DNA from: a virus
Taxonomy: Duplodnaviria > Caudoviricetes
Strand: one strand, 5' to 3'
Length of the DNA stretch: 64,000 nt
IMG/VR virus record: IMGVR_UViG_3300005611_000002
Span: 32,001-96,000 of that record
Shown: positions 2,146 to 60,173 of the stretch, in pieces
How the letters are laid out: each line of letters starts with the position of its first letter
Numbering within the stretch: position 1 is the stretch's first letter
Made by a program: the position numbers and the translations under genes
Notes under the pieces: generated by a model
The model's input: only the letters and a program-made list of their open reading frames with translations
Database searches by the model: none
Told to the model about the DNA's origin: nothing

Positions 2146-5100
2146 ATGGCTGAGAAAAAAAAGAACAAGAAAAAGTTCAGTGAGCACGATCCCGAAAAAT
2201 ATATCAATCTGGAACCTACAATTCGAGAGGCAAAAAACTCGACTGCGGTCATATCATTTGGTCGTATGAATCCAATCACGAGTGGACACGAGAAGCTGAT
2301 CAATAAGGTGATTGCAGAGGCTCTTCGTATCAAAGCCACACCTATGGTTTTCATGTCACATTCTCAGGACGCGAAGAAAAATCCACTTTCGTACTCAGAC
2401 AAGGTCAAGTTTGCTCGTCGTGCATTTGGTAAAGTGATCGTTCAGTCAAAAGCACGAACAATCATTGAAGTCGCGAAGGAACTTACTGGAAAGTTCGATC
2501 ATCTAGTAGTCGTTGTTGGTCAGGATCGTATCAAGGAATTTGATACTCTTCTCAACAAATACAATGGTAAAGAGTTCAATTTTGAAAGTATTGATGTCGT
2601 TTCAGCAGGAGCAAGAGATCCCGACTCAGAAGGAGTTGAAGGTATGTCTGCTTCCAAAATGCGAGGTTTTGCTCAGGAAGGTGACTTCGAAAACTTCAAA
2701 AAGGGGCTGCCAAGAAAACTTCAATCGTCCGCAAAAGCAGTATATGATGCAGTCAGAAATGGTATGAACCTATCAGAAGAATATATGGAAGAAGAGTATC
2801 TCGAAGAACGAGGGCCTCTGTCGGTCATGCAAAGACGTCGTCGTGGCATGGTTATGAAAAGATACAAGTCTAAGATTGCTGCAGCTCGTAGAAGAGCTCG
2901 TCGTCGTAAAGCAAGCCCCGAAAAACTCAAAACAAGAGCACAAAGAAAGGCGCTTGAAATTATCCGTAAGAGACTTGCAAAGAATAAGAAATACTCCGAG
3001 ATGAGTCCAACCGAAAAAATTGCTCTTGACAAGCGTTTAGCAAGAGTATCAAAGGCTGTACTCAATCGTATTGCTAAAAGAGAATTGCCAAAGGTTCGTA
3101 AGGCTGAAGCTGAAAGATTAGCGTCAGTGCTTAAATCTAAAATCAAAAAAGAAGACTTGAATACAGTCTTTGAAAGCTTTATGATCGAAAAAGAAGATCC
3201 AGACGTGGGTCATCGTAAAGGATCTCAGCCAAAAGATTATTACAAGGGTGTAAAGAAGAGTGTCAAGGACGATCGCGCAAGACACTTTGAAAAGCATGGC
3301 AAGATGGACGATGATAATCCAGCAGCATATAAACCAGCACCTGGTGATAGTACTGCAAAGACAAAAACTTCAAAGCATACCAAAAAGTTCAAGCAGATGT
3401 TTGGTGAAGCATCTTGCGCAGATATAAGAGTTCGTAAAAGACCTCACATGGGTCTCAACAAGAACGGCAGCGCAAAGATCGACAAGAGATTCAAGATCTT
3501 TAAGAAAAAGATGAATGAAGACTATGATGATCCTGCAGAAGATCTAGCAAATCTGATTCTAGATCTGGACAGTTTCATAATGTCCGAAGAGTTTGATATA
3601 CTTATGGAGTCAGATCCAAAAGAAGCACTCAAGAAAAAAGCCGAAAAGACAGGTATCTCGTATGGTATTTTGAAAAAGGTCTTTGACCGCGGTGTTGCCG
3701 CCTGGAGGACTGGTCACCGTCCAGGGACAACACCTACTCAGTGGGGACTCGCGAGAGTGAATTCGTTTTCGACAAAGAGTAAAGGTACTTGGGGTAAAGC
3801 AGATAAAGATCTTGCTGCTAAAGTTCGTAAGGAAGAAGTAGAACTAAGCGAAAACTTTCTTGGAAAAATAAAAGGAGCATTGGGTCTTGGTTGGAACAAA
3901 ATAGGAGATACTGTTAGAGGATCAGTAATCTTAGATTACCTTGATAGTAATGACTTTTATGCAAGTCAAAATCTCGAGAAAAGAATTAAATCCAGCAAAT
4001 TTAAACTAATAGAACTTGATTTAGAAACTGCAAAAAAATATGCGGGTCGTACTGCTAAAAAGGCTAATGTTAGCAGTATGATCGATCCTGATAAAGAAAT
4101 GCATTCTCGTCAATGGAAATTAACGCGTGACAGTTTAATTAAAAGTCCGCCTGTACTAATGAGTGACGGTGATATACTTGACGGTAATCACAGGATAGAT
4201 CGTGCAATTAAACTAAAATTACCTAAAATTCCTGTTCTCATACAGGTAGGTAAAGGTACTTGGGGTAAAGCGGATAAAGATCTTGCAGCTAAGGTTCGCA
4301 AGGAAGAAATTGAACTTGATTCTTTCTTTGATCTCAATGAGAAATTCGAGCTTATGGAAGCTTCGATTATGGATAAAGCTTTAGCAGCTATTCACAAACA
4401 CGTAGTGCAAGGTACAGAGCTGAGTGACATCGCATTTCAGGTATCAAGAGCTCGCGGTGTAAATAAAAGTGGACGTGAACTTCAAAAAGCATACATAGCT
4501 AAACACGGTGAGCCAAAGAAAAAATCTGTTAGTCCACAGCGAACATCAGCTTTGAAAAAGAAGTATGGTTTTTCTGAAGCTAAAGAAATACAGTTCGAAC
4601 ACGGATCCTATAAGTCTTTGAACTTTGATATTTGTCCGAGTGCAAAAGCTGCATTCGATAAGAATGTAGAAGATGGCAAGTATGATCGAAAATTGCTTGA
4701 TGCTGCCAAAGCTGTTGATCGTTATCTTGGTATTGAAAAAGACCTAAGACTGAAAGACGAAGTGACAAAAGATGATCTAGATAAAATGACTGACGCTGTT
4801 GAAGCTGCTAAAGAAGAGATCAAAGAAGCAGGTTTAAAGGGTCATAATTATCACGAAATTCATATTGATAATGTCAAAGATATGATGAAAGATGATGTCA
4901 ATGAAAATGCTGCAACCGATGCCGTCAAAGCGAGAATCAAAGCAGAAAAACAGCGTGATGCTCGTAAACACGATCGTATGCTCGATCGCGCAAAAATGAA
5001 AGATCTCAAAACTAAATTGACTCAAGAAGGTTCAAAAGATCCAAGTGATCGTGAATGGGGAACTGACGGTCTTACAAAGACATATAAGAAAGATACTCCA

Positions 5101-5310
5101 GGTGAAGATCTGAAAGAAGAGTCTCCTTACGCGAAAGATCTACCAAGAGGATCACGAGTACGATTTTCAGTAAAAAAGATCACTGGAGAAGATTATGACG
5201 ATGAAGGTACTGTAGTCGGTACAGATGCGAATACACTTCGACTGCGTATTCGTGATAATAATGGACAACTTCATATAGTCAAACACGAAGACGCTGATAA
5301 GATTGGATAA
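2146..5310 (+). CDS. Large modular protein: N-terminal cytidylyltransferase-like (HxGH) domain, basic region, ParB/Srx-like module and further modules; probable processed head protein
   Basis: SFGRMNPITSGHEKL and MSASKMR nucleotidyltransferase motifs; ILDGNHR ParB/Srx motif; LxE/EEVEL linkers; late promoter. Confidence 0.7.
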   Translation: MAEKKKNKKKFSEHDPEKYINLEPTIREAKNSTAVISFGRMNPITSGHEKLINKVIAEALRIKATPMVFMSHSQDAKKNPLSYSDKVKFARRAFGKVIVQSKARTIIEVAKELTGKFDHLVVVVGQDRIKEFDTLLNKYNGKEFNFESIDVVSAGARDPDSEGVEGMSASKMRGFAQEGDFENFKKGLPRKLQSSAKAVYDAVRNGMNLSEEYMEEEYLEERGPLSVMQRRRRGMVMKRYKSKIAAARRRARRRKASPEKLKTRAQRKALEIIRKRLAKNKKYSEMSPTEKIALDKRLARVSKAVLNRIAKRELPKVRKAEAERLASVLKSKIKKEDLNTVFESFMIEKEDPDVGHRKGSQPKDYYKGVKKSVKDDRARHFEKHGKMDDDNPAAYKPAPGDSTAKTKTSKHTKKFKQMFGEASCADIRVRKRPHMGLNKNGSAKIDKRFKIFKKKMNEDYDDPAEDLANLILDLDSFIMSEEFDILMESDPKEALKKKAEKTGISYGILKKVFDRGVAAWRTGHRPGTTPTQWGLARVNSFSTKSKGTWGKADKDLAAKVRKEEVELSENFLGKIKGALGLGWNKIGDTVRGSVILDYLDSNDFYASQNLEKRIKSSKFKLIELDLETAKKYAGRTAKKANVSSMIDPDKEMHSRQWKLTRDSLIKSPPVLMSDGDILDGNHRIDRAIKLKLPKIPVLIQVGKGTWGKADKDLAAKVRKEEIELDSFFDLNEKFELMEASIMDKALAAIHKHVVQGTELSDIAFQVSRARGVNKSGRELQKAYIAKHGEPKKKSVSPQRTSALKKKYGFSEAKEIQFEHGSYKSLNFDICPSAKAAFDKNVEDGKYDRKLLDAAKAVDRYLGIEKDLRLKDEVTKDDLDKMTDAVEAAKEEIKEAGLKGHNYHEIHIDNVKDMMKDDVNENAATDAVKARIKAEKQRDARKHDRMLDRAKMKDLKTKLTQEGSKDPSDREWGTDGLTKTYKKDTPGEDLKEESPYAKDLPRGSRVRFSVKKITGEDYDDEGTVVGTDANTLRLRIRDNNGQLHIVKHEDADKIG
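3781..4316 (+). repeat. 65-bp imperfect direct repeat (3781-3845, 4252-4316) flanking a ParB/Srx-like module
   Basis: Both copies encode KGTWGKADKDLAAKVRKEE(V/I)EL. Confidence 0.9.
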
Positions 5311-5313
5311 ATT

Positions 5314-5757
5314 ATGTTGAGCTTCAAAGCTTATTTGCTTGAAACCCTGAAAATGCCTGCTAAATCAAGAACTCTTGGCGTTGATCGTAAAGAGATGCCG
5401 CAGATTGACGGAAAGCACACGAGTGATTTTTTATCGTATCTGAGTAAGAAGGGCATCAAGTCAAAAAAGAAAAGAATGGATCCTTCTGAGTTGAAGGCAA
5501 CTCAACACCAGTTTCATAAAACAAAGATACAGAGCTTACTTGACTACATGAATAAAGGTACTTATGATGATCAATATATACTCGTAAGTAAAGATAACTA
5601 TGTAATGGACGGTCATCATCGTTGGTTAGCTCACATGAATGCTAAAAAAGATATTGGTGTTCATCAGATCGGTATGAATGCAAAAGATCTTATTCAACTA
5701 ATGCACGAATATCCAAAATCATATACAAAGAAGTTGTACGAACATGAAATCATTTAA
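5314..5757 (+). CDS. ParB/Srx-like protein with capsid-targeting-like N-terminus
   Basis: LKATQ...ILVSKDNYVMDGHHRW; N-terminus MLSFKAYLLE. Confidence 0.7.
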   Translation: MLSFKAYLLETLKMPAKSRTLGVDRKEMPQIDGKHTSDFLSYLSKKGIKSKKKRMDPSELKATQHQFHKTKIQSLLDYMNKGTYDDQYILVSKDNYVMDGHHRWLAHMNAKKDIGVHQIGMNAKDLIQLMHEYPKSYTKKLYEHEII

Positions 5758-24375: not shown

Positions 24376-24407
24376 GCGACATCTGGGTAACATCCGATTC
24401 ACATTAA
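24372..24407 (+). pseudogene. Stranded original N-terminus of the metallophosphoesterase (MSDIWVTSDSH*)
   Basis: Matches MSKDIWVSSDFH at 25335; its ATG overlaps the upstream stop (ATGA); it ends at the HEG stop codon. Confidence 0.85.
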
Positions 24408-25237
24408 TTCTGATAATTCTTACAATTATCAAAATGATATCTTGTCATACTTGACGCACCACCTTTTTTATTGCAATGAGGGCACTCTTTTATGACTTGA
24501 GGCCCTTTGGGTTTTCTCATTTTTTCTTTTGTAGCATCACTTAATTTTCTTCCTTTTCTAATTTTGCTTAATTTTTGACGGACAGTATCGTCAAAAATTC
24601 TCCCTTTATTCGGGCCTGTCAATTCTCCACTTTTTATTCTAGGATCTTCTACTGAGACATAGTGATAGTTACCTTCGGAATCTTTCATTGTAGTCATGCC
24701 TTTAGTTATACCAGTAAGATTTTCATTTTTAATAAATTCTTCCCGTGTAACTTTAATTATATCATTTTTTTCTGTTTTAGCAATTACTATATTTTTTGCT
24801 TTGCATGATATTTTGCGCGATATTTCTTTTTTTCTTTCTCCTGACATATTGGCATGATATTCTAAAGTAGTTTTTGATTGTAACATTCTAAATTCTTTAT
24901 TGAGACTTTCATATAATCTACTGTTGATTTTTTTATTCTGATAGCTTCTTAATGAGTGGGCTGCAAATGTTATGCTATTTACAGTAGGAAAAGCTTTCCA
25001 TAATATCACATGAGCAATAAAATGCTGTCTGGCGGTTAAAACCGCGCAATTCCAAGGATACAATTTAAAAGATTCGTATTTAGGAAACATATCATTTGCT
25101 TTTGGGCATATGTGATGTTTTTCAGTATATCCTTCATAATCAACATTTTTTAGTTGACATTGCTCGATGAATGTTATATAACGGTTTATATAATGGGGAT
25201 TATGTGGTTTTGAAGACAATATGGTATAAATATCCAT
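24404..25237 (-). mobile_element. Antisense HNH homing endonuclease (NUMOD3-like repeats, C-terminal CPHC...HFDNCK)
   Basis: EKHHICPK...LTARQHFIAH; AT-rich. Confidence 0.88.
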
Positions 25238-25318
25238 TGCTGGAACTCCTTTCTTTAGGTGGTATAGTTCTAGGGTTAGTGGGTATTTGCCGTACCGCGA
25301 CTAACACTATTATTTATA
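25225..25318. ncRNA. Conserved HEG-leader structured element, copy 1
   Basis: Bounded by inverted TATAAATA boxes; stems CTGGAACT/AGTTCTAG and GTTAGT-G-GGTA/TACC-GCG-ACTAAC. Confidence 0.7.
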
Positions 25319-25334
25319 ATGGAGCATACATATA

Positions 25335-25886
25335 ATGTCAAAAGATATTTGGGTTTCTAGTGATTTTCATTTAAATCACTCAAACATTTTGAAATTCACT
25401 GATAGTAATACTGGAAAACCGATCCGACCTGAATTTTCATCCGTTCAAGAAATGAATGAAATTATAATACAAAGACACAATAGCTGTGTAAAACCTGGAG
25501 ACAAATTTTACACTCTTGGAGATGTGTTCTTTGGTGACAAGGAATGGTTCAAAAAAATGTGGCCTCGTCTGAATGGTAGCAAGCGTCTCATCGTTGGCAA
25601 CCACGACGATATCAAGTTTCTATCCTCTGGTGGATTCTTTGCAAAGGTCATGATGTGGCGCATGTTCCCTGAGTTTGGTTTGATGTTTAGCCATGTTCCG
25701 CTTCATGAAAGCAGTTTGATGCGAGGAGCAAAAGGTGACAAGCCGATGTTAAATGTGCACGGGCACACTCACAGTAATGGATCGCCAAAAGGCCCTTATA
25801 CTTCAGTCTGTGTGGAATTGAGAAATTATACCCCAGTCCACATTGAAGACTTGGCGGCGGAGGCTAAAAAATTAATTAATGTGTAG
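25335..25886 (+). CDS. Calcineurin-like metallophosphoesterase
   Basis: SDFH, LGDV, VGNHD, FSHVP, VHGHTH motifs. Confidence 0.92.
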   Translation: MSKDIWVSSDFHLNHSNILKFTDSNTGKPIRPEFSSVQEMNEIIIQRHNSCVKPGDKFYTLGDVFFGDKEWFKKMWPRLNGSKRLIVGNHDDIKFLSSGGFFAKVMMWRMFPEFGLMFSHVPLHESSLMRGAKGDKPMLNVHGHTHSNGSPKGPYTSVCVELRNYTPVHIEDLAAEAKKLINV

Positions 25887-26744
25887 TCTACCTCTGACCC
25901 ACCCTTCCTGAATAGATTGATATTTTTCTATCATTTTATTGACTTTACCGTTATTAATACAAATCTTTCCGGTTGTTCCCACGTGTTTTGGTTTCTTGCT
26001 GTATACCCTCCCTCTGGTCCATCCTTCGGGTATATGTTCTCCCTTAAACATTTTAGAAGTTTTTCCGTCATTGATCCAAACTGATTTTTTTGGTGAGTTT
26101 TTTGTCATACCTCTATACCAACCTTCAGGAATAGTTTCTTCGGGTTTTATTCTTTTATTTGTTTTTCCATTTGTGATGGTTATAGTTCCAGCATTATTCC
26201 CTCTTAATTCGCCAGTTTTAAATCTAACGTCGTCGCTAGAAACGTAATGACCGTTTCCGCTTCTATCTAAAGCAAATGTTTTTCCCTTCGTGTGCCCGCT
26301 AAGTTCTTTATTCTCGTCGAATTCTTTTTTGCTTACTCTGAATACTTTATTATCATGTTTTACACTTACTGTTCCGGACATTTGTTCAGAAACTATAACG
26401 GAATAAGCCACTTTTATAGATTCATATATTTTACTACTTTTTATTTCATTGTAATTACTCATAATACCAAATGCGCGAATCATTGACTCATTTTGATACA
26501 CTTTCCATAACATCATATGAGCAATAAAATGTTGTCTGGCGGTTAAAACTGCACAGTTCCACGGATAATTGCTAAATGAACTATACTCAGGAAACATATC
26601 CTTTGCTTTGGGACAAATGTGGTGTTTTTCAGTATAACCTTCATAATCAACATTTTTTAGTTGACAATGTTTGATAAATATGATATAACGGTTTAAATAA
26701 TGGGGATTATGTGGTTTTGAAGACAATATGGTATAAATATCCAT
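25872..26744 (-). mobile_element. Antisense HNH homing endonuclease with three (W/I)INxG...IPEGW repeats
   Basis: N-terminal ~80 aa nearly identical to the 24404-25237 product. Confidence 0.88.
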
Positions 26745-26825
26745 TGCTGGAACTCCTTTCTTTTAGGTTGCAAGTTCTAGAGTTAGTGGGTATTGACAGT
26801 ACCGCGACTAACATTTTTATTTATA
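26732..26825. ncRNA. Conserved HEG-leader structured element, copy 2
   Basis: Same architecture as copy 1. Confidence 0.7.
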
Positions 26826-26839
26826 AAAGTAAAAATTCG

Positions 26840-26956
26840 GGCCATATCCATCAGAACAAGTCTCCAAAGGGACCTTACCATTGTGTATGTGTAGAACAGA
26901 CGAACTACACTCCTGTTCACATCGAAGATCTAGCAAAAATTGCGAGAAAGATCTAA
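26840..26956 (+). pseudogene. Stranded original C-terminus of the metallophosphoesterase
   Basis: GHIHQNKSPKGPYHCVCVEQTNYTPVHIEDLAKIARKI*; 27/38 identical to the product of 25761-25886; stop overlaps the next ATG (TAATG). Confidence 0.92.
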
Positions 26957-36662: not shown

Positions 36663-37253
36663 ATGAACTACACTTTCCCTGAAATCCGCACTATTGAAGA
36701 TGTGCTTCCGCATATCGAAGGTCGTGAAGAATTCATCGTAGCAGAGCGTGAAGGATATACCGTCGTAAATTACGTTGTGGCGATGGCTGACACCTTTGAT
36801 ATGACTGGCCCTGATGATCTTGGCGGTGCTATTCGCCGTGAGTGCAGAGGTTTGATCTTCGACCGTGACGGAAACATCATGAGTCGTCCGTTTCATAAGT
36901 TCTTCAATGTGAACGAGCGTGATGAAACTCAGTCTCATGTGATCGATATGTTGCAGCCGCATGTAATCATGGAAAAGATGGATGGATCTATGATTCGCCC
37001 TATCTTGGTTGACGGTTACTTGCGGCTTGCTACGAAAATGGGTGTGACTAACGTTGCTATGGATGCAGAGGCTTTTATGGCAAAGAATACCAAGTATAAG
37101 GATTTCTGCATATGGTGTTTGGATGAGGGGTTAACACCTATTTTTGAATGGACTAGTCCATTCAATCAAATCGTTCTTCCATATGAGAACGATATGTTAA
37201 CCCTTCTTGCTGTTAGGGAAAATATAACTGGTCGCTATCTCAGCATCAAATAA
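36663..37253 (+). CDS. rnlA: RNA ligase 1, N-terminal part (motifs I, III, IIIa)
   Basis: ECRGLIF..SRPFHKFFN; EKMDGS; TPIFEW; LLAVRENITGRY; matches the T4 Rnl1 layout. Confidence 0.88.
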   Translation: MNYTFPEIRTIEDVLPHIEGREEFIVAEREGYTVVNYVVAMADTFDMTGPDDLGGAIRRECRGLIFDRDGNIMSRPFHKFFNVNERDETQSHVIDMLQPHVIMEKMDGSMIRPILVDGYLRLATKMGVTNVAMDAEAFMAKNTKYKDFCIWCLDEGLTPIFEWTSPFNQIVLPYENDMLTLLAVRENITGRYLSIK

Positions 37254-37911
37254 TATCATATTTTTCTAGGACAGACTTCTCAAAGGTCTGTCCATTTTTC
37301 ATTTGGTTTATTATTCTAGTTCTAGTTCTTTTATATACCACATCAGGTGACTTCAAATAAGACACATCAGTATTATAGTTTCCATTTGCTTTTCTAGTTT
37401 CAACTCGTTTTTTGATAGATTCTTTAGTGTTTGCTGCGGACATATCGTTGTTGTATGTGCCCAATTTTTTACGAGTTTCTACTCTCTTTTGTATTTCTTC
37501 CTCTGTCCACCCACCTTTAGCTTTTCTAACATTCCAACTCTGTTTACCATTTTCTGTACATTTATCAATGTTATTGTTTAGATATGTTGAAATCTTGTTT
37601 TTCGTTTCTTCTGTGTGTGGTATACCTTCTCTACTTGGTGGAGCATTTCCGCCTAGTGTTAAATTATAACATCTCGGATCATTTACAAGATCATTTGTAA
37701 CAATCTCTGCTTCTTTTTCAAGTGCAGATTCTCTAGTATCAAAAAACTCTAGTATTTCTTTTGTAAACGTTTCTTTGCCATACTTTTTTATGGACTCTGT
37801 AATCGCTATGCCAGAACCCATATATCCATCAGACAAATCTGATGTGCTGTGAACACCTATATAAAATTTCAAATTGCTGTTGTTAGTGACTTTGTATAAA
37901 TAGTGATACAT
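37246..37911 (-). mobile_element. Antisense GIY-YIG (Seg-like) homing endonuclease
   Basis: YLYKVTN...FYIGVH...YMGSG...CYNL. Confidence 0.88.
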
Positions 37912-37989
37912 GCTGGAACTTCCTTTCTTGTTCTAGAGTAGTTGGGGAGACTCTCACATATCCCGCGAACTACATTACTATTTATACAA
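37892..37989. ncRNA. Conserved HEG-leader structured element, copy 3
   Basis: 13-bp perfect inverted ends TTGTATAAATAGT/ACTATTTATACAA; stems CTGGAAC/GTTCTAG and GTAGTT-G-GGGA/TCCC-GCG-AACTAC. Confidence 0.7.
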
Positions 37990-38052
37990 GATAGTAGTTG
38001 ACATTCCACAAAAACCAATATAATATGAACTTAGATGATAAGGAGTGATTCT

Positions 38053-38613
38053 ATGCTACTGAAAAAGATTTGTGAGTTTGATATCCCTACCGTGGATACC
38101 ATATTGCCATTTACTAAGATTGAATCTCTTTTAGAATTTACACGTGACCTTGAAAACGTTGAAGGCTTCGTCGTTGCTTTCGAAGATGGTCACAGAATAA
38201 AAATCAAAGCAGATCAATATGTTCGTATTCACAAGACTATTGACCGTATCACGTTTGATCGTAACATCGTTGACCTAATCATCAACGAAGAAGTTGACGA
38301 TATTATTCCGATGCTGCCGACTGTTCAAGTAGACCGCATTCGTGACTTCGAAACTCGTTTCTGGGAAGCGTTTGTAGCAACTGAGGACCGTCTTGCTGTA
38401 TATCAAACCGGTTGCGCACTGGTCTACAAGAATGACCGCAAGCGTGTTGCTTTGGAATTCATTCCGACTCTGGAGCACAAAGCAGATGCTTCGTTCATCT
38501 TTCGTATGTTGGACGGTCACGAAGTTCGTGATTTGATGATAGATCACATTCGTAAAAACATTAGTTCCAATACTCGTTGGGATGCTTGTGCAAAGTGGAT
38601 GGGAATGTGTTGA
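38053..38613 (+). CDS. rnlA: RNA ligase 1, C-terminal part (motifs IV, V and C-domain)
   Basis: EGFVVAFEDGHRIKIKADQYVRIH; own promoter (TTGACA at 37998) and AAGGAG RBS. Confidence 0.85.
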   Translation: MLLKKICEFDIPTVDTILPFTKIESLLEFTRDLENVEGFVVAFEDGHRIKIKADQYVRIHKTIDRITFDRNIVDLIINEEVDDIIPMLPTVQVDRIRDFETRFWEAFVATEDRLAVYQTGCALVYKNDRKRVALEFIPTLEHKADASFIFRMLDGHEVRDLMIDHIRKNISSNTRWDACAKWMGMC

Positions 38614-46001: not shown

Positions 46002-46948
46002 GTTGCATCTATAAAGGTAAAGTTGTAAATAGTGAATTGTCAAAGAATGCTCGCGGTGGCACAGAAATGATGCGACAGCGAGCACTTGATAACGTGGATA
46101 AGCAATCACTTGAAAAAGTAGCAATTCATCTATCGAGGCCTCGTGAACTATACGACGACGTAAAGAACATCTTGTGGTGCCATGACCTTGCAGGCGATCC
46201 AGAAAACAAAATTCTGCGTGATGAAGGTTGGGCTAAGTTTGATCACTTTGTATTCGTGAGCCAGTGGCAACGAGATACATACGTAATGGCTTATGGTATT
46301 CCATATTCGAAGTGTACTGTGATTCCCAACGCTATCGAACACGAATATGCTCCGAAGCAAAAAGATATGGAGACAATTAGATTCATTTATCATACAACTC
46401 CTCATCGTGGTCTTGAACTTGTTTATCCAATCTTTGATGTACTCTCGAAGGAATTTGATAACATTCATCTTGACGTGTATTCGTCCTTTGAGATTTACGG
46501 TTGGAAGCAAAGAGATAAACCGTACGAGAAACTATTTGAAAACATCAAATCGCATCCTTCTATGACTTATCACGGGAGCGTATCAAACGAAAAAGTGCTG
46601 AAAGCTCTCGAAAAGAGTCACATCTTTATGTATCCTTGCATCTGGCAAGAAACGTCCTGTATTGCTCTCATTGAAGCAATTCGTAACGGTCTAATCTGTA
46701 TCCATCCAAACTACGGTGCTCTCTTAGAAACATCAGATGGAGCTACACTCGTATATGACTATACTGAAAACGCACAAGAGCACGCAAATATCTGCTACAC
46801 ACTTACAAAAAATGTTTTGAATGTGATAACTCAGGATCCAAACTTTTTTGCGAATTACACTCAGTCTGATAGATATGCGCTTCCTCGTAGCGGTATAAAT
46901 AACTTTACACAAAGTTGGAATGGCGTATTGAGAAAACTAAATGACTGA
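45998..46948 (+). CDS. Glycosyltransferase (GT4/GT-B fold)
   Basis: GGTE; WCHD; VIPNAI; TPHRGL; YPCIWQETSCIALIEA. Confidence 0.88.
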   Translation: MSCIYKGKVVNSELSKNARGGTEMMRQRALDNVDKQSLEKVAIHLSRPRELYDDVKNILWCHDLAGDPENKILRDEGWAKFDHFVFVSQWQRDTYVMAYGIPYSKCTVIPNAIEHEYAPKQKDMETIRFIYHTTPHRGLELVYPIFDVLSKEFDNIHLDVYSSFEIYGWKQRDKPYEKLFENIKSHPSMTYHGSVSNEKVLKALEKSHIFMYPCIWQETSCIALIEAIRNGLICIHPNYGALLETSDGATLVYDYTENAQEHANICYTLTKNVLNVITQDPNFFANYTQSDRYALPRSGINNFTQSWNGVLRKLND

Positions 46949-47315
46949 GAATAATGTAATTACATTTCCCAAAATGAAGCTTGATTCTCCTCCGCAGTCT
47001 CCGGAAGAATTAGCTCAAAAGCTTGCAGAGTATAAGACTAGTTTTGCTGATGATATTTCAGAGTTCTTGTGGAATCATGTATTGACTGAGATGGTCCGAG
47101 CCGGTTGTCGATTTGATGCGGAAGCAGAAGAATACTACCCTTCGATCATTCTTCTTTTAGAAGCGATTCGTTCTCTTTATCTTCATGCTCAAGGTATAGA
47201 GCATCCATTACAGGAATTCGCAGCGGAATTTATTGACCTCGATGATGAAGAATCGGTTGACAAATCAGAAGAAGAATGATACTATATCTATATAAAATAA
47301 TTATGGAAACCTGAA

Positions 47316-48173
47316 ATGCTACTCATAGACTATAACCAAGTCATGCTCGCTTCTCTGTTTGCTAGCATTGGCAACCACCACAACATTGACGTAGATGAAA
47401 ATCTGATTCGTCACATGTTTCTCAACTCTCTTCGTTCAAATCGAAAAAAGTTCACTGAACAGTTTGGCGAAGTCGTAATCTGCGCTGATGGTATCAACAG
47501 CTGGCGCAAAGAAGTTTATCCCTATTACAAAGCAAACCGTAAAAAGTCTCGTGACGAGTCTGAACTCGATTGGAATGAACTTTTCCGAATTATCAACACA
47601 ATTCGCGATGAACTGAAAGAATTCTTTCCTTACAAAGTTATTCACCTCGATCGCTGTGAAGCAGATGATGTCATTGGTACTATTGTTCACGTGTTTGGAA
47701 CAGAACTCAATATTGGCGCCGAACAGATGTTGATCTTGTCTGGTGACAAAGACTACATCCAACTTCACAAATACGCAAATGTTCAACAGTTCGATCCGGT
47801 TCGTAAGAAGTGGGTCAAGAATGCAAATCCAGAAAAGTACCTCGTCGAACACGTACTTCGAGGTGATGTTGGTGACGGTGTACCAAATATTCTTTCACCC
47901 GACAACTGCCTTGCGGTAGGCCAGCGTCAAAAGCCAATGACGAGCAAGCGCCTTGAAATGTACTCGAAGGGTACGAATGAAATGGATGAAGAAACACTTC
48001 GTCGCTATCATCGTAATCGCACAGTCATTGATCTAGGTGAAATCCCCGAAAAATACAAGACACAAATTCTCGAAGAGTTCAACAAAGAAAAGGAAGTTGG
48101 TCGTGGTCAACTGATGAACTTCTTTATGAAAAAGAAACTCAAAAACCTCCTTACAGATATACAGGACTTCTAA
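47316..48173 (+). CDS. rnh: T4-like RNase H (5'-3' exonuclease)
   Basis: SWRKEVYPYYKANR; EADDVIG; LSGDKDYIQL; GDVGDGVPN. Confidence 0.95.
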   Translation: MLLIDYNQVMLASLFASIGNHHNIDVDENLIRHMFLNSLRSNRKKFTEQFGEVVICADGINSWRKEVYPYYKANRKKSRDESELDWNELFRIINTIRDELKEFFPYKVIHLDRCEADDVIGTIVHVFGTELNIGAEQMLILSGDKDYIQLHKYANVQQFDPVRKKWVKNANPEKYLVEHVLRGDVGDGVPNILSPDNCLAVGQRQKPMTSKRLEMYSKGTNEMDEETLRRYHRNRTVIDLGEIPEKYKTQILEEFNKEKEVGRGQLMNFFMKKKLKNLLTDIQDF

Positions 48174-50754: not shown

Positions 50755-51285
50755 ATGGCGTATGTCGTAAGTTATGAAATAGAAAATTCTAATACTATAT
50801 TCGAGTCTCCGGCAAATGAGCCGGAGACTCAGTTTCCTAGTATCAGATCAACCAGTGATTATACATTCAACGTAACTTTCAACGTATTTGATGATGTAGC
50901 AAATGCAGACGTTGTGGTATTGAGTTCAAATGTTTCAGTTGCTAATACCACAGCAAATGTAAGTATTACATCCACTTCAAACAATTCAGTTCAAATCACG
51001 GTAGAACAGATTGGACCAATTGAACCAGAAATTGATTTGTACAGATTTATAAGCTTTGCAGAAGATTTTGGAAGCTTTGATATAGAACTTAAGACGGCAA
51101 ATAATGCTACGGAAGAAGACTCTGTCATAGAATGGGCAATTACAAGCGAAGTAATTGAATACAAAGTTTCATTAGCAACAGAAGCAAATAGCGTAGTGTC
51201 GACATACGAACAAGACTATCTTTTCCCAAATCTTACGTTAGACACCACTATTCTTTTAGATCTAGTTTCAAGGAGTAAATACTAA
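50755..51285 (+). CDS. Putative virion/baseplate protein
   Basis: Acidic, S/T/N/V-rich beta-type composition; coupled to the PAAR gene. Confidence 0.45.
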   Translation: MAYVVSYEIENSNTIFESPANEPETQFPSIRSTSDYTFNVTFNVFDDVANADVVVLSSNVSVANTTANVSITSTSNNSVQITVEQIGPIEPEIDLYRFISFAEDFGSFDIELKTANNATEEDSVIEWAITSEVIEYKVSLATEANSVVSTYEQDYLFPNLTLDTTILLDLVSRSKY

Positions 51286-51593
51286 TGCCAGCGGTAGCAG
51301 TATGCACAGTAGACAAAATATCAACCGGTCATCCATGCACAGTGGTTGCTGGCATAAAAGGAGCTTTGCAGGATAAAGTAACGATAGGCGGAAAACCGGT
51401 TGCAATCGTAGGAGACGTTATAGCACCGCATACGATCCTTGTTCCTATTCCTGCATGCATACCTCACTCTGCTGTAGTAAATGCTGGTTCAAGTAAAGTT
51501 TCCATTGGAGGAATTCCAGTTGCTAGAATAGGAGACTCGGCTGATATGGGCGCAATTATTTCAGGATCATCAAAAATATTTGCTGGCGGCTAA
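51285..51593 (+). CDS. PAAR spike-tip protein (T4 gp5.4-like)
   Basis: PVAIVGD, GSSKVSIGGIPVARIGD, GSSKIFAG. Confidence 0.9.
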   Translation: MPAVAVCTVDKISTGHPCTVVAGIKGALQDKVTIGGKPVAIVGDVIAPHTILVPIPACIPHSAVVNAGSSKVSIGGIPVARIGDSADMGAIISGSSKIFAGG

Positions 51594-51607
51594 CTAAGGA
51601 TTATATT

Positions 51608-52279
51608 ATGTTTCATCATGTAGACCATGGAATTGTTTTACCGAAGATCACTCGTAAGAATACTGAAGTAGGAAGAAAATACTTCACGCCAGAAGGTAAC
51701 GCATATCCTTCTATCACAACTGTGTTGTCTATTCTCGGAAAGGACGCGATCCAAGAATGGCGCAATCGAGTAGGAGAGGAAGAAGCAAATCGTGTTTCTG
51801 CATTTGCTTCGAAGCGAGGAACTGCAGTTCATAAGATTGCAGAAGACTATCTTAACAACGAACCAGATTACAAGAAAGGACACATGCCAACAAGCGTGGT
51901 GTCCTTCAATGGTATAAAGTCGATACTTGATGAGAGACTAAACAACATCTGGATGCAAGAGACTTTCCTGTATAGTGATAAGCTCAAGTGCGCAGGTCAA
52001 GTTGATTGTATTGCAGAATTTGATGGTGAACTCTCGATTATCGATTTCAAAACGTCTCGTAAGGAAAAGAAGAGATCTTGGATTAGAGGTTATGAAATGC
52101 AAACTTGCTTTTACGCCGCGGCGTTTTTAGAACGTACAGGCATTGCCATAAAAAATTATGCAATAATTATAACAGTAGATGAAGGAAATTCTCAAGTTTT
52201 CACTGGAAATACTTATGAGCCCTTTCATGATTTCTTATCATGTCGTCAAAAGTACGAAGAATATGTAAGATCTCTTTGA
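51608..52279 (+). CDS. PD-(D/E)XK exonuclease (Cas4/RecB-like) with a replaced C-terminus
   Basis: YPSITTVL; RGTAVH; AGQVDC; IIDFKTS; Q...Y. Confidence 0.88.
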   Translation: MFHHVDHGIVLPKITRKNTEVGRKYFTPEGNAYPSITTVLSILGKDAIQEWRNRVGEEEANRVSAFASKRGTAVHKIAEDYLNNEPDYKKGHMPTSVVSFNGIKSILDERLNNIWMQETFLYSDKLKCAGQVDCIAEFDGELSIIDFKTSRKEKKRSWIRGYEMQTCFYAAAFLERTGIAIKNYAIIITVDEGNSQVFTGNTYEPFHDFLSCRQKYEEYVRSL

Positions 52280-53153
52280 GCCATTTTGTATTTTTTTGAT
52301 ACCAACTCCGACCTAATGTGATACGATATTTTGCTAAATAAATTTTAATCTCCATCACTTCTTTTCTTTTTGATTTTAATTTTCTCGTTTGAATATAACA
52401 CCCAGTCGTTATTTCCGGTGCTTCCTTTGTGTATTTCACTTTACTAATATCTGTTTTAAGTTGATCAATAAGATTTCTTTTTTCTATTATCTCTATACTA
52501 ATTTCTTTACAATTATCAAAATGGTGTCTAGACATTGCAGATGCGGATCTTGCCTTTGCTTTTTTCCCGCAGTGTGGGCATATTATATCTGGTTTTGAAT
52601 CTATAGTTTGCTTTCTTTTTTCTATTTGTTTTTTTCTAGTATTTTCTGAAATTTTAGATTGTCCGTTTCTAAATTTTTCACATCTTTTTTCATATTCTTC
52701 TTTAGTATAAGATTTCCAAATTTTTTTGTGTGTTTTTCGTGACTTTTCTTTAGATTTTTCTGATATAACTCTTCCAGGATATGATCTAGATTTACTAGAT
52801 TTACTTATTAGTTCGCTTCTTCTTCTTTGTACGTCTTCAGGTAACTCACTTAGTAATGGAAACCCTCTATTGTGAGTTATGTTCAACCATTTATCTGATT
52901 TTGATACTTTTAATCTTCGAAGTACACATTCTTCCCAAATTAAAGCATCTTTATGATTATTAAATTTTTTGCGAATTTGTATTACGTCTGGTTCGCCATT
53001 GATTTCTCTAAATTCCTTTACGTGTTTTGATGAAGTAAAGTATTTGACCCACAGATCAGACGGATGACAATTTTTTGCATAGCGAACACCATAATACCAT
53101 TTATCATATTTTGTCCAACCGATAAGATACGTGTAGGGAGTATAAATAGACAT
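52200..53153 (-). mobile_element. Antisense GIY-YIG-like homing endonuclease with CPHC...HFDNCK motif
   Basis: YTYLIGW...WYYGVR...YFTSSK...WE..VL...WLN; AT-rich. Confidence 0.82.
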
Positions 53154-53232
53154 GAGCTGCGTTCCTTATTTTTAAATGCGTTAACGTAGAGTAGTTGGGA
53201 CTGGTACTCCGCGAACTACATTAATATTTATA
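53141..53232. ncRNA. Conserved HEG-leader structured element, copy 4
   Basis: Compensatory stem CTGCGTT/AACGTAG; GTAGTT-G-GGA/TCC-GCG-AACTAC; inverted TATAAATA ends. Confidence 0.7.
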
Positions 53233-53237
53233 ATTTT

Positions 53238-53429
53238 GGTTACTTCGTCCAAGCAAGCTTCTACGCCGCCGCATTTCTTGAAAGGACTGGAATTGCTATC
53301 AAGCAAGGTGTAATCTTGATCACTGTCGATGATGGTGAACCTCAAGTCTTCAAGATCAATACCTATGACTACCTCGAGCACTTTCTTGAAGTGCGAAAAA
53401 AGTTCAAACAAATGTACGAAGGGGGTTGA
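53238..53429 (+). pseudogene. Stranded original C-terminus of the exonuclease
   Basis: GYFVQASFYAAAFLERTGIAIK...MYEGG*; 63 aa, 34/63 identical to the product of 52088-52279; no start codon. Confidence 0.92.
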
Positions 53430-53482
53430 CATTTGTTTTGAAATGGTTTAGAATCATATTATAAGTTAGGAAAGGAAAACTT

Positions 53483-54388
53483 ATGACGATGATTCGGATT
53501 ACCAAGCGCTTCTATGATGATCACATCGAGCGCGATCTCGAAGCCCCTGCAATTGTTCGCGAGTCAAAGCGTTACTATTGGATCGACACCTCAGATGAAA
53601 ATTTCGATGAGCTTCACGCGGATGCAATCTTCTACCGCGGTATGTGGCTCGATGGCGCTTATGACGCTTACCTCAAGCCGATCTGTATGTCGGCTCACCA
53701 GTTGATTACTGCGTACGAAAGGGGTTGACAAACACCCCGAATCAGTATAGTATCATAATATCAAATCAAACCGAAAGGAACTACACTATGGGTACTCATG
53801 CGATGATCGGCATCTGGAATTCCGAAGACGGCTCGGTTGAAGCCACTTATGTTCACTACGACGGCTACGTGGATGGCGTTGGAAATGCGCTGATCCACTT
53901 TTTCAATACTCAAGAAAGCGCATCGGCTGTTGCCAATGTTGGCTATCTTTCTTCTCTGAGTGCTGATCTTGAAACCTCCATCGAGGAATCAGTTCACCAG
54001 GAACCTACGGTTCCCTATGAGTCTGTCGAGCAGTTCATGAAGAACGGCTACGATTACGCAGGTGCGGAATATCTTTATCTTTGGGACGGTGAAGCGTGGT
54101 TTGTAGCTTCTCGGTATGGAGAACAGCGCTTCACTGATGTTATTACTGTTTTGAGTGAAAAAGATGCAGCTTAACACGAACCGGATACTCACCAAATTCA
54201 TTCGAACCGAGAGCCATCATTTTGTAGGCACAGTCTGGCCCTTTCGAGGCTGTCAAGTCGAAATGCACGATGATGGCTTTTCGTGTACTTGTAAAAAGCG
54301 CATGACGTATAAATGCAATCATATCAAATCCGTAGAACTTGGTATTCTTGGCGTAGGACTAAAACAATATGAACTTATTCGTACTTGA
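53483..54388 (+). other. Early hypothetical genes (53483-53728, 53788-54174, ~54164-54388)
   Basis: Promoter cassettes at 53426 and 53725; YVHYDGY motif in 53788-54174. Confidence 0.6.
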
Positions 54389-59270: not shown

Positions 59271-60095
59271 CTAGCACTCTTCTTTCTTGTGTTTACAGTT
59301 ATCGAAATGATATCTTTGACCACCTTTCCCTTGAAACCTACAATGCGGGCACGTAAATGGCTTGCGGATTTTTGCAGACTTTTTCATATTTTCTTTATGT
59401 TCACCAGATTTGGGCACACCTTTTAGAGTTTTAGAAATGTTATTCTTAGTTTCATCTGAATGTACCCTACCTTTCATAGAAGTAGATATTTTTTCAGGAT
59501 CAGGTTTTTTCCTGTGTTTCATTTTTTCTTTATAACCAGGTCTTTGCCATATCTCCTTTCCAATCTCAGATCTTTTCTGTCTTTGTTCTTCGGTCAAATT
59601 CATTGGAACATCCTTCTTTGCTTTCGAGATAGATGCGCATTTTTTACCCTTATTCCAAGGAATATTACCTTTCTTACAAGGATTATTTTCAGACATTTCT
59701 TTACTCATTATCTTCTTTCGCTCAGCGCCCATGTCACTATCCCAAAACTGTTTCTTCAAAACAGATGCTGCTTTACCCGACAAACCAATAGCACGTTTTT
59801 TCACATTATAATATCTAATAGTTTCGTTACGTTTATTTTCTCCCAAACACAACTCTTCATCTTTGATCATGTCAAGATACTTTTGTTCTAGTGCAAATAA
59901 CTCTTTGGGATCATTACCGTAATAAAACTCAAGTATTTTCCTTCTGAAATCATGAGGTCTTTTCTTGATTGCGCTATCCATGAAACCAGTTGATGAAGTA
60001 TATCCATCATCCAATGAACCCATATGGGATCCAATACAAAACCACTTTCTTTTGCGGTCATACCAAATATATACGAAACCTGAATAAATATCCAT
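59271..60095 (-). mobile_element. GIY-YIG (Seg-like) homing endonuclease downstream of gp23
   Basis: GFVYIW...CIGSHMG...YTSS...EQKYL...YYN; NUMOD3-like repeats; CPHC...HFDNCK. Confidence 0.85.
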
Positions 60096-60173
60096 TGCTG
60101 GAACTCCTTTCTGTAAATGTTTAGTTCTAGAGTAGGTGGGACTGGTACTCCGCGACCTACATTTTTATTTATT
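60083..60173. ncRNA. Conserved HEG-leader structured element, copy 5
   Basis: Ends AATAAATA/TATTTATT; stems CTGGAACT/AGTTCTAG and GTAGGT-G-GGA/TCC-GCG-ACCTAC. Confidence 0.7.

Follow-up and report, generated by a model that had tools for sequence, protein, structure and literature searches.

A replacement gene end and an antisense Seg-like endonuclease gene form a putative mobile cassette in the exonuclease gene of an uncultured phage

The gene for a PD-(D/E)XK exonuclease in an uncultured phage carries, near its 3′ end, what is probably a mobile unit of about 1,165 bp. This unit comprises a foreign version of the last 68 codons of the gene, a GIY-YIG homing endonuclease gene (HEG) in antisense orientation, and the leader and late-type promoter of that HEG. 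The displaced original 3′ end, hereafter the orphan, lies immediately downstream of the unit. The window analyzed here is a stretch of 64 kb that corresponds to bases 32001–96000 of a 194,645-bp IMG/VR virus record (IMGVR_UViG_3300005611_000002) with direct terminal repeats, and all positions refer to the window unless the full record is named. The exonuclease, tail, and orphan allele found in it is labeled WIN.

The exonuclease gene occupies positions 51608–52279 on the plus strand and encodes 223 aa. Its native 5′ part, codons 1–155 (51608–52072, plus strand), includes the (D/E)xK motif IIDFKTSRK, and its cassette-borne replacement 3′ end, codons 156–223 and the stop codon (52073–52279, plus strand), carries the QxxxY motif. 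The portion of the replacement end that is paralogous to the orphan lies at 52088–52279. The Seg-like HEG (52200–53153, minus strand) encodes 317 aa, and its last 26 codons overlap the replacement tail in antisense over 80 bp (52200–52279). The HEG leader (53154–53237, minus strand) contains a ribosome-binding site (AAGGAA), a covarying hairpin module, and a late-promoter-like TATAAATA at 53225–53232, 72 bases upstream of the gene. The orphan itself (53238–53429, plus strand) represents codons 161–223 and the stop codon of the native exonuclease 3′ end, cut off from its start. The coordinates that the initial annotation had given for the exonuclease, the HEG, the orphan, and the 80-bp overlap all hold when read from the sequence; its starting point for the inserted unit, 52088, was off by five codons. 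Codons 1–155 are 93% identical in amino acids and about 80% identical in nucleotides to L001, the closest uninterrupted allele, and from 52073 onward the nucleotide identity to L001 falls to 40–63% over the in-use tail. The residues KEKK at codons 152–155 are specific to the lineage, being common to WIN, L001, and a further allele, P0009, and sequence of the other type begins at R156; the left junction therefore lies at 52072/52073. On the right, homology between the orphan and uninterrupted alleles starts at 53238–53241. These two junctions delimit an insert of about 1,165 bp (52073–53237), and the five native codons 156–160 are absent from the orphan. An assembly artefact was considered and rejected, as the same protein architecture is found in at least eight contigs from different sources.

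If the cassette supplied the end now in use, relatives without the HEG should continue with the orphan-type sequence, as the initial annotation had predicted. The exonuclease loci of 87 uninterrupted relatives were fetched, seven from IMG/VR and 80 from a single metagenome scan, and every one continues with a tail of the type found at 53238, none with the type found at 52088. Their tails are 65–85% identical to the orphan and 47–61% identical to the in-use tail, no chimeric tail occurs among them, and no close HEG homolog is present at any of these loci; the metagenome scan recovered its 80 uninterrupted alleles and no HEG-bearing one. Tails of the in-use type were found only in the exonucleases P0001–P0008 and their cluster mates. 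A search scored on residues 156–223 identified seven other exonucleases of 223 aa (P0002–P0008) with tails 75–79% identical to the in-use tail, and a search with the HEG identified seven homologs (P0012–P0018) at 61–67% identity. For each exonuclease of the in-use type, the longest contig is equal in size to that of an HEG homolog or of its cluster mate (26338, 21395, 13318, 5374, 5097, 5095, 3241, and 112704 bp), and from these matching sizes the two proteins appear to share contigs. Thus the proposal of an HEG cassette that provides a new C-terminus and leaves the old one stranded agrees with both groups of alleles: the HEG-less relatives are uniformly of the orphan type, and the in-use type occurs only with apparent HEG co-location.

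A second example of a stranded end came from a search for short orphan-like proteins. P0132, a protein of 72 aa from the 26338-bp contig, is an orphan-type tail preceded by NYTFIYNF-R. Its junction peptide, NYTFIYNF-R-YFIQASFY, corresponds in the same frame to NYINIYNF-G-YFVQASFY in the window, where NYINIYNF is the antisense of the promoter region, and this match indicates the same right junction in both genomes. In addition, a variant of the relatives' exonuclease that contains EPLKD is paired with an HEG shorter by 8 aa, a pairing that a conserved antisense overlap would produce, since TTA AAA read in antisense includes TAA.

Both ends of the gene bear the marks of the exonuclease family. 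As initially reported, the in-use tail and the orphan both begin at GY and share 34 of 63 amino acids; they align without gaps, and 113 of 192 nucleotides are identical. The orphan consists of 63 sense codons followed by TGA, and its earliest in-frame start is a TTG at 53316. By itself it matches phrog_298 at E = 2e-12 (profile positions 199–257 of 293), and no Pfam family matched it at E ≤ 0.01. On this sequence evidence, the orphan is a real gene remnant and not a chance reading frame. The complete exonuclease matches PF12705 (E = 4e-8) and phrog_298 (E = 5e-77 over residues 1–219), and its nuclease motifs are complete, with IIDFKTSRK in the native part and Q165 and Y169 of QxxxY, both invariant, in the replacement tail. 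At each of the 24 positions where the family alignment is invariant, this tail has the family residue, and we infer that it keeps the exonuclease functional. These observations bear on an alternative in which a self-splicing intron or another spliced element joins approximately 52087 to 53238 and the in-use tail is incidental. Such joining would restore the native protein, the orphan being an intact frame; however, no Rfam family, including the group I and group II introns, matched either strand of 51000–54000 at E ≤ 1, and the HEG lies on the opposite strand, which together make splicing unlikely. A tail that keeps every family-invariant residue and is conserved at 75–79% in the 223-aa proteins of other phages also does not look incidental. 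We regard splicing as extremely improbable, and neither it nor an intein as a serious alternative.

The orphan runs directly into the next promoter, as first described: its TGA stop codon is located inside the −35 box of a sigma-70-like site (TTGACA-17-TAGAAT, 11/12 matches; 53426–53454, plus strand) that precedes the downstream gene. Two consecutive genes in fact terminate in GG TTGACA (53426–53431 and 53725–53730), with the stop TGA forming part of the next promoter-like −35 box. Although it has lost its translation, the orphan would be constrained at its 3′ end by this arrangement. The downstream gene (53483–53728) also lies 3′ of the exonuclease gene in L001, where one additional ORF of 68 aa intervenes.

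The two tails differ in composition as well as in sequence. The G+C content at third codon positions (GC3) is 0.22 for the in-use tail, 0.21 for the HEG, 0.38 for the 5′ part of the exonuclease gene, and 0.49 for the orphan, against a genome mean of 0.32. The description of the in-use tail as AT-rich is correct relative to the 5′ part of its own gene, but the value corresponds only to the 18th percentile of the 63-codon windows of the genome. The orphan, which had been described as having genome-typical codons, is instead at the 96th percentile of these windows. The similar GC3 of the in-use tail and the HEG fits a common origin of the two.

The tail had also been called recoded, on the basis that 10 of 15 codons in the conserved block FYAAAFLERTGIAIK differ synonymously between the in-use tail and the orphan. 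The count is accurate, and across the two tails 21 of the 34 codons for identical residues differ in this way. When the orphan was compared over the conserved block with 67 uninterrupted alleles of other phages, however, a mean of 0.64 of the codons differed synonymously (range 0.42–0.92), so that the 0.67 observed between the two tails amounts to ordinary divergence between these phages. Likewise, WIN and L001 differ synonymously at 69 of 144 identical-residue codons over the 5′ part. Adaptive recoding is therefore an unnecessary explanation. This ordinary level of difference points to a foreign allele rather than a designed one; with synonymous sites near saturation across the phage group, the in-use tail did not arise as a recent local copy, and purposeful recoding is unsupported. 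The traits that do set the in-use tail apart are its 46% amino-acid divergence from the orphan and its placement in a separate clade. The two tails are nowhere identical over a run of more than 8 nt, and with so little continuous identity, deletion of the insert by homologous recombination should be rare. The suggestion that the tail resists such deletion is thus compatible with the low risk this run implies, but the property need not be an adaptation.

The same comparisons speak to a local origin, in which the tail was duplicated in tandem, an HEG later inserted between the copies, and the upstream copy diverged in place. The two tail copies are indeed collinear and equal in length, and they start at the same GY. 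However, instead of being sister to its own orphan, the in-use tail belongs to a separate clade that includes phages of other lineages, its synonymous saturation is the same as that between different phages, and its composition matches that of the HEG rather than that of the host gene. Tandem duplication is accordingly very unlikely. A mixed tail was observed in P0010 (221 aa), a distant uninterrupted exonuclease whose YFMQASFY is native-like and whose AIIITVD and VFTGNT resemble the in-use type; such an allele may resemble the natural source from which the tail of the cassette was first captured.

Trees of the two parts of the gene contradict each other. In the tree of the tails, the 11 in-use tails form one clade with a support of 100, and both orphans nest among the native tails. 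In the tree of the 5′ part, calculated from codons 1–155, the same 11 HEG-bearing genes are interspersed among HEG-free alleles: WIN falls with L001 and P0009, both HEG-free (support 98), P0002 has as its sister L110, also HEG-free, P0003 and P0136 cluster with L104, and P0005 clusters with L003 and L107. A single clade of HEG-bearing alleles on the 5′ part is rejected (delta lnL 121.7; approximately unbiased (AU) test, p = 3.1e-6), and the HEG-bearing label requires five changes on this tree, at least two of them forced by strongly supported branches. Each orphan, in turn, resembles the lineage of the 5′ part with which it is found. The WIN orphan is nearest to P0009 (85%) and L001, which belong to the lineage of the WIN 5′ part, and the P0132 orphan is nearest to L110 (89%), the sister of the P0002 5′ part. 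The orphan and L001 are 83% identical, against a mean of 91% (standard deviation 5) for pairs with similar 5′ parts, a difference that is not significant. By these placements, the gene in WIN uses a foreign 3′ end while its native one is stranded, and the unit is present on exonuclease alleles of several lineages. Taken together, the discordant trees and the lineage-matched orphans indicate that the unit of tail and endonuclease has moved between alleles.

The candidate agent of this movement is the protein encoded by the HEG. Searches with tblastn matched it to annotated SEG-like and GIY-YIG endonucleases of large phages, including one annotated between the terminase halves 17A and 17B of Aeromonas phages, and it matches phrog_655 (homing endonuclease). 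No Pfam family matched the HEG at E ≤ 0.01, a profile made from the HEG alignment retrieved nothing meaningful from the PDB sequences, and scans of IMG/VR with the HEG and with its alignment recovered distant Seg-like genes only. An AlphaFold model built with 46 homologs has a mean predicted local distance difference test (pLDDT) score of 81.7. Residues 4–99 of this model superpose on the I-TevI catalytic domain (1mk0) with Z 9.0 and a root-mean-square deviation of 2.6 Å over 89 residues (VIA-align), and 1ln0 gives Z 8.7; with Foldseek, the whole model ranks 1mk0 first, at a weak E = 0.18. As modeled, the nuclease domain has the GIY-YIG alpha/beta fold. Y9, Y20/Y21-G22, E74, and N91 are invariant among the 46 homologs and R24 is nearly so, their equivalence to I-TevI residues being assigned by position. 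A CPHC...HHFDNC motif, which may belong to a separate DNA-binding region of the NUMOD or zinc-finger kind, is also conserved (C192, P193, C195, H210-H211, and C215 are invariant), and many relatives contain PF07460. The HEG product is thus apparently an intact GIY-YIG nuclease. In the 90% cluster of its closest homolog, members are split (127 + 112 aa and 127 + 106 aa) or shortened to 224 aa (P0139/P0140, P0142/P0143, P0144, and P0145), which suggests that the nuclease has decayed in some phages that retain the replacement tail, as in the usual life cycle of an HEG. The octamer TATAAATA upstream of the gene, which we take to be the T4 late-promoter consensus, is found 17 times in the window, where 3.1 occurrences would be expected.

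From these parts, a route of spread can be proposed. During co-infection, the endonuclease would cut an uninterrupted exonuclease allele near codons 153–161, just ahead of QxxxY. Repair of the break from the cassette-bearing genome would use the 5′ part of the gene as the left homology arm and the orphan tail of the donor as the right arm. The recipient would then hold a chimeric yet complete gene with a disrupted target site, its own old tail displaced downstream, and the divergent tail would probably make the chimeric allele immune to cutting. I-TevI cuts 23–25 nt upstream of its insertion site, and the switch from native to foreign sequence in WIN lies 15 nt upstream of the position equivalent to the orphan start.

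Several considerations weigh against this reading, and in part against recent mobility. Cleavage, immunity, and homing are proposed by analogy with the WHO elements of yeast, and general phage recombination could produce the same mosaic without nuclease action. The co-occurrence of exonuclease and HEG in relatives is judged from equal contig sizes, there is just one further documented orphan, the tail tree was built from only 62 columns, and at the 18th percentile the match in composition between tail and HEG is not statistically strong. Moreover, no near-identical cassette was found on two backgrounds, and the copies are old: HEGs at 61–67% and tails at 75–79% identity are about as diverged as the host genes, the 5′ parts of WIN and P0002 being about 76% identical. 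This last feature would suit the main rival, a single ancient insertion followed by vertical inheritance, with the scatter of HEG-bearing alleles arising from ordinary recombination or cassette loss and no current nuclease-driven homing. All HEG-bearing alleles do fall inside one 18-row subclade of the 5′-part tree, and the decay of some HEGs likewise speaks for this rival. Set against it are the AU test cited above, which rejects a single HEG-bearing clade, and the state of the orphans, which are intact frames that match the tail of their own lineage at 85–89%. Precise loss of the cassette would require recombination between tails whose longest shared stretch is 8 nt, and loss would leave chimeric tails, of which the 87 alleles contain none. 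We therefore consider a single ancient insertion unlikely and favor a mobile unit.

The closest parallel with an experimentally supported mechanism is found in the WHO elements at yeast FBA1 (Coughlan et al. 2020, eLife; PMC7282813), whose model was derived from contradictory 5′ and 3′ trees and from 3′ fragments (PMC7282813). As in the phage, a WHO element combines an endonuclease gene with an upstream replacement 3′ end, which in WHO elements confers resistance; the old 3′ end remains downstream as a fragment, which in WHO elements serves as a homology arm; and the target gene is chimeric, with conflicting 5′ and 3′ phylogenies (PMC7282813). The WHO proteins differ in being intein-like LAGLIDADG/zinc-finger nucleases, and they operate in a eukaryotic nuclear genome with meiosis. 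The phage unit has a GIY-YIG Seg-like HEG in antisense, an 80-bp overlap with the tail, and its own late-type promoter, and it is followed by a single orphan, unlike the fragment clusters associated with WHO elements. Carboxy-terminal duplication is also known from the mORFs of fungal mitochondria, in atp6 of Allomyces macrogynus and in atp6, atp9, cox2, and nad3 of Glomus sp. (Beaudet et al. 2013, PMC3630166). There, too, an endonuclease ORF lies near the 3′ end of a conserved gene with a foreign inserted C-terminus, and the native C-terminus is located downstream and clusters with close relatives; the inserted and native C-termini of the Glomus atp6 mORF are 63.5% identical in nucleotides, compared with 59% here (PMC3630166). 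The initial annotation had named fungal mitochondria as the precedent, and the mORFs indeed match in design, but they are not the sole closest precedent, as the yeast WHO elements work likewise (PMC7282813). The mORFs differ from the phage unit in that they are usually on the same strand as the host gene, often in frame with it, and mostly of the LAGLIDADG type, and they belong to another genetic system with another mode of transmission.

Among phages, the comparison is with the free-standing Seg and Mob endonucleases, which spread by double-strand-break repair with co-conversion of flanking markers. Classical Seg genes are, to our knowledge, intergenic and leave no duplicated gene end. The HEG described here is like them in encoding a GIY-YIG nuclease of the Seg type beside a conserved gene of a large phage and in its likely late transcription, and it would spread by the same repair route; unlike them, it has an insertion point inside a coding region, the integrity of which is restored by the gene end it carries. 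Free-standing Seg and Mob endonucleases of T4-type phages and their "intronless homing", with SegF and SegG, are treated in work cited in PMC3037559. A related GIY-YIG HEG is also situated within an essential phage gene, without an intron or intein, in gp17 (17A/17B) of an Aeromonas phage and in an RNA-ligase-like gene of the window. Those two genes are left as two pieces that need to work as separate polypeptides, whereas the exonuclease gene remains in one piece because the cassette supplies a replacement end. Limited literature searches found no description of a phage HEG with a duplicated gene end. What is new here is that the host is a phage, that the nuclease belongs to another family, that its gene interlocks in antisense with a rescue tail, and that about 100 alleles provide evidence at the population level.

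A second gene-end-replacing cassette is present in the same genome at 24404–26956. It comprises a phosphoesterase gene (25335–25886; phrog_547) and an orphan tail within 26711–26956, and the phosphoesterase gene is flanked by paralogous HNH-type endonuclease genes (24404–25237 and 25872–26744, both on the minus strand) that are 53% identical. L184, the closest phosphoesterase relative without an HEG, shares 83% identity with the orphan and 68% with the in-use tail. By these identities, the phosphoesterase cassette behaves like the exonuclease cassette.

Seven endonuclease-like genes of different families in this genome have in common a leader, about 90 nt long, that contains TATAAATA and a covarying hairpin. 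The modules lie at 25225–25318, 26732–26825, 37895–37986, 53141–53232, and approximately 60083–60173 of the window, and near 149614 (plus strand) and 189374 (minus strand) of the full record. Compensatory changes in the hairpin include GUUAGU/ACUAAC, GUAGUU/AACUAC, GUAGGU/ACCUAC, and GUCAGU/ACUGAC (RNAalifold consensus, in which either strand may be the one that folds). The module also has an AAGGA ribosome-binding site and an ATG-x-ATT-TAT start, and a second TATAAATA is located on the opposite strand inside codons 2–5, so that the two promoter-like sites converge, 84–86 bp apart.

The full record also encodes a ribonucleotide reductase, a primase, a DNA ligase, PhoH, and a major head protein; megablast with the exonuclease region found no GenBank phage match, and the best relative of the exonuclease among GenBank phage proteins is 52% identical. 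Its load of endonuclease-like genes is unusually heavy, with at least 13 mutually similar ORFs in 194.6 kb (all-against-all blastp of stop-to-stop ORFs). Examples in full-record coordinates are 2952–3635, 4964–5614, 46830–47555, 50777–51643, and 69249–69932, and further ones are 91274–92164, 95368–96201, 178169–178876, 185690–186313, and 188437–189369. The RNA-ligase-like gene mentioned above is apparently split into ORFs at 36663–37253 and 38035–38613 of the window by an antisense GIY-YIG gene (37246–37911); it has no duplicated end and is thus a "gene in pieces", not a gene with a replaced end. Elsewhere, long minus-strand ORFs at 121407–125490 of the full record contain repeats of about 300 aa that are 57–73% mutually identical and mark a large, internally repetitive protein region.

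A mobile unit of this kind would extend to phages a homing strategy beyond inteins, introns, and intergenic insertion that was previously proven only in yeast and described in fungal mitochondria. It would account for a conserved phage gene that gains a highly divergent end but still resembles its relatives at the front, and it matters for the interpretation of phage gene phylogenies and of "hypervariable" gene ends. The system is also testable: cutting is predicted in a short conserved stretch that lies immediately ahead of QxxxY in a small nuclease gene, and natural alleles predicted to be sensitive (L001 type) and resistant (WIN) are at hand. Engineered cleave-and-rescue drives have a natural counterpart in this interlocked antisense layout. 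More tentatively, and with less than even probability, large phages may harbor a guild of "cut-and-rescue" cassettes, free of introns and inteins, that occupy essential genes and each bring a substitute end. Tail and nuclease would in the present case be interlocked by the 80-bp overlap so that neither can be lost alone, and unrelated nuclease families would share a portable leader-promoter module. If such a guild exists, it would be a general and so far undescribed way for large phages to turn over gene ends and become mosaic.

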